This document shows positions 6,701 through 63,119 of a stretch of 64,000 nucleotides of DNA, in pieces (within the stretch, counting starts at the first letter, position 1; the number at the start of each line of letters is the position of its first letter). Origin of the DNA: Eledone cirrhosa. Taxonomy: Eukaryota. The notes under the pieces were generated by a model that was given only the letters and a program-made list of their open reading frames with translations, had not been told where the DNA came from and searched no databases. A program made the translations under genes and the position numbers. Location: the NCBI GenBank assembly GCA_964016885.1, contig CAXHJY010001399.1:62001-126000 (forward strand). Reading direction: 5' to 3'.

Positions 6701-7489
6701 CACATCTACAGGTAAATATATAGACAGATAGAGACGAGACAGTTGTAAACCTACATACACACATCTACAGGTAAATATATAGACAGATAGAGACGAGACA
6801 GTTGTAAACCTACATACACACATCTACAGGTAAATATATAGACAAGAGAGGTGTAAACCTACATATACACACATCTACATGTAAATATGTAGACAAGAGA
6901 GGTGTAAACCTACATATACACACATCTACAGATAAATATATAGACAGGTAGAGACATGAGAGGTGTAAACCTACATATACACACATCTACAGGTAAATAT
7001 ATAGACAGATAGAGACAAGAGAGGTGTAAACCTACATATACACACTTCGACAGGTAAATATATAGACAGATATAGACAAGGGAGGCGTAAACCTACATAT
7101 ACACACATCTACAGGTAAATATATAGACAGATATAGACAAGGGAGGTGTAAACCTACATATACACATCTGCAGGTAAATAGAGACAAGGGAGGTGTAAAC
7201 CTACATATACACATCTACAGGTAAATATATAGACAGGTAGAGACAAGAGAGGTGTAAACCTACATATACACACATCTGCAGGTAAATATATAGACAGATA
7301 GAGACAAGACAGGTGTAAATCTACATATATACACACATCTACAGGTAAATATATAGACAGATAGAGACAAGACAGGTGTTAACCTACATATACACACATC
7401 TGCAGGTAAATATATAGACAGATAGAGGCAACGGAAGGGGCTGGTGAAACACTATAGCAATGGGGTTTACCGGCTACATAGCCTATTTG
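3724..7489. mobile_element. Second copy of the MULE-like MITE family, expanded by an internal satellite
   Basis: TIRs GGTAGAGGCTATGTAGCCGGT / ACCGGCTACATAGCCTATTTG; TSD GAGATTAAT (3715-3723) vs GAGATTAAA (7490-7498); left subterminal region homologous to about 470-640. Confidence 0.8.
3890..7425. repeat. 59/61-bp tandem satellite, about 58 copies
   Basis: Unit CATCTACAGGTAAATATATAGACAGATAGAGACAAGAGAGGTGTAAACCTACATATACA(CA). Confidence 0.95.
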
Positions 7490-16754: not shown

Positions 16755-17182
16755 TGTTGAGTATGTGTTGGTTGTTTAACGACACCCCAGTATGCAGGTT
16801 GGAGCACTCAACGAAGTGCGCAGGTTGGTTTGTTTACTCCGGAGTAATGTAAAAACAATAAGTGTAAGTCAACAGGTTAAAATTAACTTCGTTTATTCAC
16901 ATTCACTGCTATATATATTTTAGTAACAGCCATAATTCAACAGCTATCACCTCATCAGGCTTCCAGTTCCGTAGAGGACTAACAACGCACCCAGGATCTG
17001 AACATATCAATGGATTAAGACGGTAAAATCCATTGCAACATCATGTTTTCCTGTTTTTTTTTCTGTTTAAATTCTTACTGCCTGATGAGGTCATAGCTGT
17101 TGAATAATAGCTATCACTGAAATATATATAGCAGCGAATATGAATAAACGAAGCTAATTTTACCCTGTTGACTTACACATCT

Positions 17183-17250: not shown

Positions 17251-17252
<2 letters not shown>

Positions 17253-17439
17253 CGAAGGAAATGTGGTAAGGAACCAGGTGGACCATAACGCACCAAAGTA
17301 CTCAATACTTAGGGTAGTAGAGTGGGTAATAGGAACAAGTAAGACCCCGACGGCTGAGCTCAAGCCGTTTCGACGGCTAATTCTGGACTGAATTAGCCGT
17401 CGAAACGGCTTGAGCTCAGCCGTCGGGGTCTTACTTGTT

Positions 17440-17444
<5 letters not shown>
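17251..17444 (-). mobile_element. PLE-like hairpin plus tail remnant in (TA)n
   Basis: Arms 17329-17383 and 17390-17444 containing GAAA-CGGCT..AGCCG-TC; same family rearranged at 42657-42822. Confidence 0.7.
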
Positions 17445-26138: not shown

Positions 26139-27277
26139 GTACTAATACTTCCAGGAAAGGCATGAATGTCACATATTCTCATTCATAGTTGTTTGCTGTT
26201 TCACACGACTCATTATAAATCACCAACTTACTGTTACGACAAACCTACCCACCTTAATAGGGTGTGTTAGGAAGAAGGCCTGCTATTTGCGGAGAGGGGG
26301 GAAACTCGATTATATGCACCCCAATAGTTTACTGGTACCGCCTTAAAGAACAAGAAATAATTGTTTCTACTTTTGGCACAAGGCCAGCAAATTATCTCAG
26401 TGCATTACTGGTACTTTATTTTATCGACCCCGTAAGAATGAAAGGCAAAGTTAACCTCGGTGGGATTTGAACTCAGACCATAAAGGGCCGTAACTCTTTG
26501 CTGCAATTCATGGCGTCCGACCCTCTACCGATACTGCCAATCCACAATGATTTCTAATTTAGGTGCATGGCTAATCCATCGTCCCTTTATAATAATTTAC
26601 AATTTAGGCACAAGGCCAACAGTTTTTTTTATGGCGGGGTGAGTCGATTATATATACCCCAATAGTTTACTGGTACCACCTTAAAGAACAAGAAATAATA
26701 ATTTCTAATTTTTTTTTTTTTTTTTCGACGAAATATAACTTTATTTTCAAAAGATAAATAAATATGAGAAAGTAAGATTTAATTAAGTAATTAAATGGGG
26801 AAGGGTTAAGTAAGGGCAGATCTGGTTGTATGGGAATGTAGAGGAAAGAACTATGAAGGACATACATGAGAGGAACAGGAGGGGAAAAGCAAGGGCAAGG
26901 CCAACAAGAGGGAAGGAGAATATATCGTTATCAGAGGGCACTGGATTGGCAGTATCGGTAGAGGGTCGGACGCCATGCTTTGCAGCATAGAGTTACGCTC
27001 TTTTACGGTCTGAGTTCAAATCCCGCCGAGGTTAACTTTGCCTTTCATCCTTACGGAAGGTCGATAAAATAAAGTACCAGTAATACACTGGGCATAATTG
27101 CTGGCCTTGTGCCAAAAGTAGAAACAATTATATAATCACAGTTATTATATTTCATCGATTCTTGAAAGATCGAAGGCAAAGTTGATCTCGACGGGATTTG
27201 AAGGTAAAACGTAAAGGGACGTAGCTAAATGCTACAAAGCATTTAGTCGGACGATCTAACGATTCTGTGAAGACGTC

Positions 27278-32163: not shown

Positions 32164-32312
32164 ATTATTTCTGAAGACGGCGTATATATGTGTTTGGTAT
32201 GTATATTTAATCTTGATAATTTGTATAATTTTGTATAATTTTGTACATAGATCTGTTGAATATGCATGCCAATTCTAACACATATATATCCTAGAAACGA
32301 TCGTTAAATAAT
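32164..32312 (+). ncRNA. Type I HHR motif with about 116-nt stem II domain
   Basis: ATTATTT-CTGAAGA-...-GAAA-CGATCG-TT-AAATAAT; copies at 49464-49611, 49318-49465(-) and 62905-63042. Confidence 0.7.
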
Positions 32313-32370
32313 GAACTTTTTTTGTTTAATATAAGAAATTGTTTATTCATTATTTGTTTAATATTTTATA

Positions 32371-42032: not shown

Positions 42033-42084
<52 letters not shown>

Positions 42085-42134
42085 GATAGGTAAATATACA
42101 CGGGTGTGTATGATTGTGTATAGAAGATTATATT

Positions 42135-42530
42135 AATAAGAGGAATTCCAACTTTGTCTGATTTACTCGTTTTATTTACAATCCTTTAAAATTTATAATG
42201 GTATTATAATGAAATAGTATGATAGAATATTAAATTCTAAGTGTTAATTGAACAAGTACTTTCATGCTTTCGCAATCTTCAGGTTCATAATATGTGGTGA
42301 CAGTCGAGTTTGCAATTTTCAACTGTGGAGAATATTACACAGTTGAAAATTGCAAACTCGACTGTCACCACATATTATGAACCTGAAGATTGCGAAAGCA
42401 TGAAAGTACTTGTTCAATTAACACTTAGAATTTAATATTCTATCATACTATTTCATTATAATACCATTATAAATTTTAAAGGATTGTAAATAAAACGAGT
42501 AAATCAGACAAAGTTGGAATTCCTCTTATT
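42135..42530. repeat. Palindrome (193-bp arms, 10-bp spacer) with an HHR in each arm
   Basis: 42135-42327 / 42338-42530; TGAAC-CTGAAGA-TTGC.GCAT-GAAA-GTAC-TT-GTTCA at 42378-42416 and its mirror at 42249-42287. Confidence 0.85.
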
Positions 42531-43367: not shown

Positions 43368-43368
<1 letters not shown>

Positions 43369-43551
43369 GTTATTCCGGGTTGAATCGGAGGTAACCACAG
43401 TAAGTAAGGTACTCAATACATAGCAGAGTATAACAGTTTTAATATAGATGAGATTCTACAGGACTAGAACTGTTTCATTCATTAGAAATCATCATTCCTG
43501 ATGATTTCTAATGAATGAAACAGTTCTAGTCCTGTAGAATCTCATCTATAT
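43368..43551. repeat. Hairpin plus tail remnant in (TA)n with an HHR core at the apex
   Basis: Arms 43442-43494 and 43499-43551; CTGATGA-TTTC.GAAT-GAAA-CAGTTCTAG-TC from 43498. Confidence 0.75.
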
Positions 43552-49075: not shown

Positions 49076-49117
<42 letters not shown>

Positions 49118-49121
<4 letters not shown>

Positions 49122-49667
49122 GATAAATCTACCAAGAGTTTACGGTAGTGTCCAATCCGTATGAAGAACTCAATGTATTCCGGATATCATGGAAAGAAGA
49201 AATGTAATGAAAAATCACTTTCGGTGAAAGATAAACGGTATACAGAGTCAAGATAAAATATTAAACAAATAATGAATAAACAATGAGACAGTTCCTTATA
49301 TTAAACAAAAAAAGTTCATTATTTAACGATCGTTTCTAGGATATATATGTGTTAGAATTGGCATGCATATTCAACAGATCTATGTACAAAATTATACAAA
49401 ATTATACAAACTATCAAGATTAAATATACATACCAACACATATATACGCCGTCTTCAGAAATAATTATTTCTGAAGACGGCGTATATATGTGTTGGTATG
49501 TATATTTAATCTTGATAGTTTGTATAATTTTGTATAATTTTGTACATAGATCTGTTGAATATGCATGCCAATTCTAACACATATATATCCTAGAAACGAT
49601 CGTTAAATAATGAACTTTTTTTGTTTAATATAAGGAACTGTCTCATTGTTTATTCATTATTTGTTTA

Positions 49668-49676
<9 letters not shown>
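49118..49676. mobile_element. 424-bp spacerless palindrome plus tail, in (TA)n, with two HHRs
   Basis: 49253-49464 / 49465-49676; centre lies at the 5' edge of HHR stem I; tail 49118-49252. Confidence 0.85.
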
Positions 49677-49698
<22 letters not shown>

Positions 49699-50285: not shown

Positions 50286-50475
50286 GGGCGGTGGATTGGC
50301 AGTATCGGTAGAGGGTCGGACGCCATGCTTTCCAGCATAGTTACGTCCCTTTACGGACCGAGTTCAAATCCCGCCGAGGTTAACTTTGTCTTTCATCCTT
50401 ACGGAGTCGATAAAATAAAGTACCAGTAATACACTGGGTAATTGCTGGCCTTGTGACAAAAGTAGAAACAATTAT
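50286..50475 (+). mobile_element. Full-length OK-like tRNA-derived SINE
   Basis: A box TGGCAGTATCGG, B box GAGTTCAAATCC, 3' GGCCTTGTG..AAAAGTAGAAACAATT. Confidence 0.8.
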
Positions 50476-51654: not shown

Positions 51655-52635
51655 TCTATATATATATATAAAACTGAGGATGTCTGTCTGTGTGTGTGTG
51701 AGTTTGAATCGCTAAAACCCGAGAACCACTCAACCGACTGTTTTCAAACTTTACACATGTAATACTTATGTTTCAGGAAGTGTTCTAAGCAAAATAAAAT
51801 TTCAAATTTTCAATGCCCTAGGGACCGCATTAGGCGATTTAGCGATCTCTCTCTATAATTCTTAGTCTTTCTCTTTTTAGATAGATATATACATATAACG
51901 TCGCACCTTTATAATTGTTTCTACTTTAGGCACAAGGCCAGGAATTAACCAGTGCATTACTGGTACTTTTATTTTATCGACCCCGTAAGGATGAAAGGCA
52001 AAGTCAACCTCAGCGGGATTTGAACTCAGATCGTAAAGGGACGTAACTATGCTGGAAGGCATGGCGTCCGACCCTTTACCGATACTGCCAATCAACCGCC
52101 CTTATAATATCTGTCTGTATGTCTGGCTGTCTGCATTACGTCACTCCCCTGAGGATGTCTGTGTGTGTGTGTGTGAGTTTGAATCCCTAAAACTCGATAA
52201 GTACCCAACCGATTTTTTTGAAACTTTACATGTGTATTACTTATGTTTCAGGGAGTGTTATGCACATAAAATTCAACTTTTTGATCTCCTAGGGCCCGCA
52301 TTAGGTGAAAAACTGCGTTTTTAAAGCTTTTTTTTTTTTTTTAGGCGTTACGTCAGACCGATTTCCTTGAAATTGTAACTATGTATTAATCAGTCTCTTC
52401 TTCATACCGTGAGCAAAGAAAATCCATCTTTTTTATGGCCTAGGGCCCGCATTAGGTGAAAACCTGCATTTTCCCTGCTTCATCGAGGAAAATCTTAAAG
52501 ATTATCCAACCATCAGAGTATTCGGTTTATTTTCTTTACATATTGTCCAGGCATGCAGTTTTTCCACAATTAGGTCTGATGGCGGCCCGCGTTCCAAAAT
52601 ACCTATTCCCGTGCAACGCCGGGTACCACTGCTAG
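51655..52635 (+). mobile_element. Non-autonomous Helitron with a nested SINE
   Basis: A-TC start, internal duplication, CCCGTGCAACGCCGGG hairpin plus CTAG-T end; SINE at 51913-52102. Confidence 0.75.
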
Positions 52636-57827: not shown

Positions 57828-58466
57828 ACTATAAGTGAAGGCGTGTGGCTGAGTGGTTAGAGAATTGGATTCGCAATCGTAAGGTTGTGAGTTCGATTCC
57901 TGGACCAGGCGATTCGTTATGTCCTTGAGCAAGACATTTAATTTCACGTTGCTCCTTCTACCTGGAGTTGCGACCGATAGATAGTATTAGCAGCTGGAAA
58001 GAACAACAGAAACATTGTCCCTCGGTCCGAGTTGACGAAAGTCGATCGTTCCTTTTATATATATATATATATAACAATATATATACATATATAACGATAT
58101 ATATATATAACAATATATATATATATATATATAAATCGAAAATGCAACTGGAGTCTTTTTAAGAATATTTATTTGGTTCCTTTACCGGTTTCGCAATATA
58201 GTAATAATAATAAATCTGAAGACTAAAATCCAAAGAGGGCTCGGTAAGGATAAATATATATCAAATATATAAGAACCGTAGAGCAAATATTTATTAAAAT
58301 AACAGATTAAAGTTTAAGCAAAGAATCGCTGCTTTCACCCTTAACGGGATCTTCTGATACTAACCAGCGATTCTTTGCCTAAACTTTAATCTGTTATTTT
58401 AATAAATATATATATATATATTGATTAAATCTTAACCATTTAACATCTCAGGATATGTCATGTATC

Positions 58467-60682: not shown

Positions 60683-60730
<48 letters not shown>

Positions 60731-60733
<3 letters not shown>

Positions 60734-60993
60734 TATTTTCCGTTGTGTTGTAATATAAATATTACACACAGTAGATTATCAGCTCACGTAGAGTTTGCTC
60801 GACGGTTCCAGTTGTAGTTCCAAAAGTAATCCGGAGAAAAATAGAAAGATTTGAATGGATACAGTTTAGTTGAAAGGAATTTATTGACACGTGTTTCTAT
60901 AACAGTTACATAACCTATGTTTTAGGTTATGTAACTGTTATAGAAACACGTGTCAATAAATTCCTTTCAACTAAACTGTATCCATTCAAATCT

Positions 60994-60999
<6 letters not shown>
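60731..60999. repeat. Hairpin (77-bp arms) plus tail in (TA)n
   Basis: 60841-60917 / 60923-60999 with GAAA-CACGTG-TC; tail 60731-60840. Confidence 0.8.
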
Positions 61000-62562: not shown

Positions 62563-63119
62563 CTATATATGTATATATATATATATTAACAACCTATATA
62601 TATATATATATATATATTAACTGTTTCTACTTTAGGCACAAGGCCAGCAATTACCCAGTGTATTACTGGTACTTTATTTTATCGACCCTGTAAGGATGAA
62701 AGGCAAAGTCAACCTCGGCGGGATTTGAACTCAGATCGTAAAGGGACGTAACTATGCTGGAAAGCATGGCTGCCGACACTCTACCGATACTGCCAATCCA
62801 CCGCCCTATATATATATATATATATATATTAACAACATATATATATATGTATATATTAACAACCTATATATATATATATATATATTGAAAAATCACTTTC
62901 GGAAATAATTTCTGAAGACGGCATATATATGAGTTGGTATGTATATTTAATTTTGATAGTTTGTATAATTTTGTACATAGATCTGTTAAATATGCATGCC
63001 AATTCTAACACATATATATCCCAGAAACGATCGTTAAATAATGAACTTTTTTTGTTTAATATAAGGAACTGTTTCATTGTTTTATTCATTATTTTTTTAA
63101 ATATTTTATATATATATAT

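Follow-up and report, generated by a model that had tools for sequence, protein, structure and literature searches.

Hydra-clade Penelope-like elements (PLEs), as characterized by Craig et al. (2021, PMC8557442), carry a single ORF with RT and C-terminal GIY-YIG, have RWx and DKT motifs and a hammerhead in the pLTR, and target (TA)n. The element described here shares these features, but is about 7 kb long with a 3.5-kb 3′ UTR, whereas the paper gives sizes of generally below 3 kb; it also differs from the clade in a stem II of about 110 nt and in having thousands of copies, and its hammerhead is not the one given there for Hydra-1_oBim. The PLE hammerheads presented by Cervera and de la Pena (2014, PMC4209133), who also note dual motifs 100–700 bp apart on opposite strands, resemble ours in being of type I, with a self-complementary helix III suited to dimers and an extra base after the core. 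The very long stem II sets ours apart from the variants in that presentation, and its cleavage is a prediction.

Penelope copies with an inverted pLTR and a tail (Arkhipova et al. 2013, PMC3846280; Craig et al. 2021, fig. 2) are head-to-head inverted, 5′-truncated copies like ours. According to PMC3846280, they share with ours a tail on one arm, a palindromic overlapping junction and an Inr-like pLTR motif. The tail is 135 nt here against 30–40 nt in PMC3846280 and PMC8557442, and the junction is fixed to one base in more than 1000 arms, unlike in the elements as described in PMC3846280. How the inverted pLTR forms is called open in the discussions of both papers; PMC3846280 favours self-priming on an antisense template, whereas the present data favour two primers on sense RNA. 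The element type and the inverted-plus-tail architecture are already published; the value lies in base-level junction evidence on formation, since a young family with thousands of copies yields junction statistics that separate the formation models.

Two further systems are relevant. In the in vitro work of Frangieh et al. (2024, PMC11167929), the Anolis PAc protein cut both strands and extended them, acted on AT-rich targets and began reverse transcription at the two tail boundaries; the two-strand extension fits a twin-priming model, and we count the reported dispensability of hammerhead cleavage as a further likeness. PAc belongs to a different clade, and the comparison covers the tail boundaries rather than the inverted arms or the 5′ junction. 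LINE-1 twin priming, in the account of PMC11702581, resembles our case in that a second primer comes from the other target end and uses the same RNA to give an inversion, in the microhomology or small inserts at inner junctions, and in the extra G at full-length 5′ ends. In L1, as described there, the second primer sits at variable internal sites and the arms hardly overlap, whereas in the family studied here both priming sites are fixed and 213 nt are usually present on both arms. We found no published proposal of twin priming or start-site run-off for PLE inversions, which older Penelope work (1997–2008) or the 2017 dimer-hammerhead paper may contain.

The palindrome and its parent element

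Positions are numbered from +1, the C of the hammerhead core CTGAAGA, at 49471 of the window, i.e. the whole 64,000-nucleotide stretch of Eledone cirrhosa DNA that was analysed. The spacerless 424-bp palindrome claimed in the first-pass annotation is real: it lies at 49253–49676, with perfect 212-bp arms and a loop of 0 nt, and is the longest perfect non-microsatellite palindrome in the window. The whole unit reads (TA)n, inverted +341 to −7, direct −7 to +206, (TA)n. The left and right target microsatellites, recognized by sequence, occupy 49080–49118 and 49674–49698 (both unstranded). The left arm consists of a 135-nt tail, +341 to +207, found on this arm only (49118–49252, minus strand), and the inverted pLTR part, +206 to −7 (49253–49465, minus strand), with the mirror hammerhead core at 49458–49452. 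The right arm is the pLTR part from −7 to +206 (49464–49676, plus strand), and its best-scored genomic copies are 100% identical to it. Both arms can be read to −7, and the two −7 ends overlap there by the dinucleotide AT, which forms the apex (49464–49465, unstranded). Exactly the same apex was found at 192 loci genome-wide.

The hammerhead at the apex, also part of the initial claim, is of type I and is supported by the motif and by a constrained fold (49464–49614, plus strand). Its parts are the 5′ strand of stem I (49464–49470), the core (49471–49477), stem II (49479–49590, approximately 110 nt), GAAA (49593–49596), a self-complementary stem III (49595–49604) and the 3′ strand of stem I (49605–49614), and the cut is predicted to fall after GUU at 49604, i.e. 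+134. The apex had been placed at the start of stem I; it lies instead 3 nt inside, as the untruncated stem I comprises 10 bp (−10 to −1 with +135 to +144). The active-like fold is predicted to lie 3–4.5 kcal/mol above the minimum. Frequent stem II substitutions were one-sided and kept the pairing, and no frequent double-sided change was seen; in the raw tally 117 substitutions keep and 141 break pairing, a count dominated by truncations and indels. Conservation of the core is circular as evidence, since the loci were picked by core patterns. Rfam searches gave only sub-threshold microRNA-type matches in the window, among the 150 of 248 matches listed, and no hammerhead match in the autonomous locus L063. 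A second cut at −8/−7 (UUC triplet) was rejected by sequence reasoning, as the required stems cannot form.

The right arm gave at least 531 first-look candidates in the 3.0-Gb genome, the 40 scored ones with a 100% match, and a 26-mer from the 3′ half of the hammerhead matched exactly at 6745 sites. Locus L063 contains a pLTR, the tail, an 813-aa ORF, a 3.5-kb microsatellite-rich 3′ UTR and a second pLTR, and measures approximately 7.1 kb from core to core. The tail of the palindrome is the sequence that separates pLTR and ORF in autonomous copies, and over 348 nt the window unit matches the pLTR and tail upstream of the ORF in locus L065 at 99.7% identity. The 3′ UTR (4187–7700 of L063) is a degenerate TA/TG microsatellite that has been copied faithfully between loci.

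The L063 ORF has RWR, DKT, YRDD, CxCx5C, YKC..YIG, CxxC and CxH motifs and no CCHH. The Hydra-clade list in section 11 of PMC8557442 includes an RWK-like motif, DKT, the CxCx5C linker, CxxC and CxH, with CCHH absent, and the translation matches this list with RWR in place of RWK. In Atlas neighbours of the ORF at 0.96–0.99, some of the members carried GIY-YIG, RVT_1 and HTH_animal, and sequence searches with the ORF against Pfam and PDB yielded no useful match. As in EN+ PLEs, an RT/GIY-YIG ORF is linked to the palindrome's repeat, the pLTR is partly tandem or inverted with a tail at one end, and a hammerhead motif lies within the pLTR; as in the Hydra clade, insertion is into (TA)n. The length of about 7.1 kb departs from the clade's size of generally below 3 kb, which is a tendency and not a defining motif. 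On these sequence features, the palindrome is an inverted pLTR with a 135-nt tail, belonging to a young Hydra-clade PLE in (TA)n.

Two other classes were considered and rejected. Instead of the head-to-tail tandem hammerhead units of a non-LTR retrozyme, the family shows head-to-head pairs, single arms and the ends of long elements, and a MITE or fold-back DNA element was discarded as the centres vary within haplotypes and there is no mobile unit with a constant centre. A sister family (L186, L187, L111, L117 and L121) has the same first 20 nt of the hammerhead and differs upstream, in the 3′ part and in the tail; its truncated copies also begin at −7. Long head-to-head insertions of 4–8 kb (L064, L066, L068 and L070) pair a +206 end with a +341 end.

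Arms and junctions of head-to-head copies

The head-to-head set was assembled from arm, 26-mer and −7-break searches, which cover a subset of the copies; of its 92 rows, 6 with three arms or divergent sequence were dropped, leaving 86. One arm ended at +206 and its partner at +341 in 83 of these 86 pairs. Among 60 near-symmetric copies, family variants were present on both arms 169 times and on one arm 10 times, compared with 66 and 199 in shuffled pairs; private variants were on both arms in 15 cases and on one in 20. This agreement points to one template, or to conversion, and led us to reject two different RNAs per insertion (169 vs 10). Gene conversion of arms already inserted, or a single source dominating in each cell, could produce it as well.

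When one arm was shortened, it was the tail arm in 22 of 23 cases and the +206 arm in one; the bias is 19 of 20 without three loci that were chosen for a full +206 arm, and the dropped locus L167 would count in the opposite direction. Six of the 22 short tail arms stopped at +194 to +224, beside the second priming site (p = 0.03), and so resemble the adjacent inner breakpoints that L1 twin priming leaves according to PMC11702581. Nine of the 22 covered only +221 to +341 and had no sequence in common with the partner arm. Among 14 inspected single arms joined to (TA)n, 11 were of the tail type, 2 ended at +206 and 1 was cut short. Asymmetric and single-arm copies occur among the youngest, 100%-identical copies, and the median identity of short forms (95.9%) was close to that of symmetric ones (96.7%, p = 0.26), measured against one reference and therefore a weak clock.

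Some junctions were blunt or carried short templated inserts; in others the ends overlapped by 2 nt, or by 5 nt with a mismatch at the centre. With the 5-nt-overlap apex, the native strand was on the tail arm in 6 two-arm copies and on the +206 arm in 3. The spacerless apex was found on 8 of 18 haplotypes, and the commonest haplotype showed 10 apex types. Since apex types vary within a haplotype and recur across haplotypes, the mirror arm is built anew at each insertion. Copies with three arms or a duplicated apex (L076, L140 and L176) are likely rearranged palindromes.

The −7 boundary and the formation of the inverted copies

A common 5′ boundary had been proposed in the first-pass annotation from three copies. 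Genome-wide, truncation points are strongly non-uniform and pile up 7 nt before the core: with 28-letter patterns, homology broke after −5 in 205 arms, after −6 in 296 and after −7 in 1566, while 4101 of the 6168 arms in the pattern counts, which include the sister family with the same anchor, retained −8. Clustering is far beyond chance: of the first 100 position-ordered arms on contig C1, 44 started at about −13 to +2, 13 within +13 to +120, and 43 read past −26. The first 100 arms retaining −8 mostly continued natively (about 90), with 2 stopping at −8, 1 at −9 and 4 belonging to the sister family. About two-thirds of the arms read past −7, so that other templates exist. The stretch from −7 to −1 is an A/T-only run between two Cs, so that chance microhomology would shift some −6 and −5 ends to −7 and sharpen the peak. 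An apparent boundary at about −620 was rejected as a truncation, as it is the internal (TA)n of the 3′ UTR; 19 of 33 arms continue into the UTR by BLAST and the rest visibly.

The base at the boundary is an A preceded by a pyrimidine in the palindrome's family (TC|ATT), in the sister family and in a further family, B. The −7 base is the A of TCATT, which resembles the Inr-type motifs described for rotifer pLTRs in PMC3846280. No TATA box was seen at the expected distance from −7, and no DPE at the expected spacing by eye. Family B has its pile-up at an A that follows T, 44 nt upstream of the core, and in another family, C, the boundary lies at −6 to −4, the start of its stem I (both by eye in 100 rows); thus, the boundary does not track stem I across families.

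About 4 in 100 of the arms assigned to −7 are SINE junctions. In these 4 of the first 100 arms (L157, L160, L161 and L165), 5-nt microhomology links the −7 boundary to a SINE-like repeat; the junctions have differing outer ends and involve both sister families, and may be template jumps after run-off. The repeat also has copies in the window at 50291–50475, 26353–26546 and 51911–52096.

In 428 arms, position −8, natively a C, was a G on the sense strand. The extra G occurred in 26 of the first 100 arms at −7 compared with 19 of 200 at −6/−5 (Fisher p = 2.7e-4); 6 of the 26 can be read as the native −8 of the partner arm, and removing partner-explained cases, sorted by hand, left 16 vs 5. Unambiguous cases preceded the tail arm at 4 loci and the +206 arm at 7, and an extra G was also present between (TA)n and a single arm (L150). 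In L1, an extra G marks capped full-length inserts, as reported in PMC11702581. An added C on the cDNA may also stem from terminal transferase activity with the cap absent, and a cap does not account for family B, where the cDNA frequently has a G instead of a C past the boundary. Judged from the junction sequences, −7 is probably where run-off occurred at the 5′ end of the RNA, and that end is probably a capped start.

The reading that we prefer, with a probability of roughly 0.6, is that the palindrome is a 5′-truncated inverted insertion of the young Hydra-clade PLE in (TA)n, formed by twin priming on one sense RNA, where both cDNAs ran off the likely capped 5′ end at −7 and were joined head to head. 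The element, its autonomous partner, the outer ends at +206 and +341, the −7 boundary, the arm agreement and the variable junctions are read directly from the genome, and from them we infer the following steps. The RT/GIY-YIG protein would nick both strands of (TA)n, and one target 3′ end would prime at +341 (the tail end) and the other at +206 (the pLTR end), each with about 3 nt of TA pairing. The +206 cDNA would extend to the RNA 5′ end, whereas the +341 cDNA would stall, often near +206, or displace the +206 cDNA and likewise reach the RNA end. RT would often add a C opposite the cap. The cDNA 3′ ends (...GAAATAAT) could then anneal by their terminal AT to give a spacerless apex as in the window palindrome, or pair over 5 nt around a central mismatch, or be linked by short templated inserts, with repair filling in. 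We propose that the apical position of the hammerhead follows from its place as the first element in the transcript, and not from any stop that it imposes on RT. Copies extending past −7 would arise from longer templates, either read-through or circular, the latter having been proposed in PMC4209133.

A broader proposal, which we hold tentatively and at slightly below an even chance, is that PLEs in general integrate by programmed twin priming, with one capped sense RNA, two fixed priming sites and both target strands. A single outcome would then comprise the inverted pLTR, the tail on one side and the palindrome at the junction, and the apex would mark the start site. If true, this would replace the antisense self-priming proposal, make the start site of an element readable to the base from DNA alone, and hold across families, of which at least four in this genome have a fixed boundary. 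With copy numbers in the thousands, the genome probably carries perfect 0.4-kb palindromes by the hundred in each family, and these may give rise to double-stranded RNA and to rearrangement.

It is conceivable, although unlikely, that twin priming and run-off took place as above on an RNA whose 5′ end at −7 was made by processing, i.e. by a nuclease or a splice-related cut, the extra base being added by RT terminal transferase. All of the run-off junction evidence would still hold; PMC4209133 places an intron end of D. virilis Penelope at the 5′ end of helix I, and CAG stands just upstream of the family C boundary. However, −7 lacks a preceding AG acceptor, a variable sequence and not a constant exon lies 5′ of the boundary, the hammerhead's own predicted cut is at +134, and the added base is biased to sense-strand G.

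We consider it about as doubtful, or a little more so, that an antisense transcript (Arkhipova et al. 2013) or the first cDNA folded back at its 3′ end and extended itself, with the endonuclease trimming the second arm at +206; self-priming has been proposed earlier for junction palindromes (PMC3846280). It would account for the arm agreement, and a CTTCA/TGAAG hairpin at −11 to +6 could serve it, one such junction being seen among the first 100 arms retaining −8 (L185). A hairpin with a zero-nucleotide loop is sterically impossible, and the apex shared by 192 loci has no loop. In addition, the native strand of the 5-nt overlap is on either arm (6 vs 3), the extra G precedes both arm types, and the 9 tail arms confined to +221 to +341 have no sequence in common with the partner from which they would have been copied. 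The fold-back origin suggested in the first-pass annotation is therefore not upheld, while the retro-origin of the palindrome is supported.

The other part of that suggestion, that stem I of the hammerhead stops RT or triggers the fold-back and that short forms result from later deletion of one arm, appears improbable. The boundary is inside stem I in the palindrome's family, at its start in family C, and at the 5′ edge of a small 5-bp hairpin in family B, and the copy at 62886 and the triple-arm loci L076 and L140 appear rearranged. Nevertheless, the ends lie at −7 and not at the stem edge at −10, i.e. 3 nt into the 10-bp stem, stops at −8 or −9 account for only about 3 of the first 100 read-through arms, and the family B boundary is 44 nt from the core; an RT arriving from +206 would already have opened stem I. 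Collapse of one arm is plausible for the 62886 copy alone and fails as a general source of short forms, which are found among 100%-identical copies, are not more diverged than symmetric ones and are shortened selectively in the tail arm.

Long perfect palindromes can be sequencing artefacts. It is highly improbable that the palindrome is one, or that it spreads as a unit from a fold-back or MITE-like master, as the identical apex at 192 loci might suggest: the haplotype comparison, with apex types differing within one haplotype and recurring across haplotypes, largely refutes such a spread, the arms have two distinct fixed outer ends, and tail-to-apex joints ending at 49463–49465 are present in short-read contigs of runs X1 and X3, which come from one sample that may be the assembly's own.

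Other copies and families in the window

A single arm from −7 to +206 of the palindrome's family, about 95% identical, lies in a TA/TATG microsatellite at 32164–32369 (plus strand); as had been claimed, it shares the start point of the palindrome, at −7. An older copy, about 90% identical, at 62886–63109 (plus strand), consists of a tail piece (+251 to +235, also at 49208), a left-apex remnant and the right arm. The tail piece had thus been recognized correctly, but the claimed direct joint is not there: between this piece and the right arm stand 8 nt (GAAATAAT) kept from the apex of the left arm, in a junction of the common 5-nt-overlap type. This copy is likely a deletion derivative or a template jump.

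The hairpin that had been noted at 43498 is also real (43442–43551) and centred on a hammerhead core, but belongs to the separate family C, with zero BLAST matches to the palindrome's element. It is part of a mini inverted insertion with its own tail at 43368–43551 (unstranded), the right arm of which starts at −4 of its core. Family C gave 4672 pattern matches, CAG stands immediately before its boundary, and a 1.1-kb tandem array of it is present on contig C1 at 83.68 Mb. Family B, with 5204 pattern matches and 5-nt-overlap junctions of its own, is represented at 42036–42530 by a mini inverted insertion with a tail, 193-bp arms and a hammerhead core at 42383.

The repeat-finder output for the window was dominated by microsatellites. 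Further palindromic or inverted stubs lie beside (TA)n at 60720–60999, 17252–17444, 20–265 and 58190–58400; some are extended on one side and contain hammerhead-like halves, and the stubs probably represent other PLE families. Compact hammerhead-like cores (CTGANGA..GAAA) at 17082, 50180, 31191, 13243 and 16452 belong to further repeat families.
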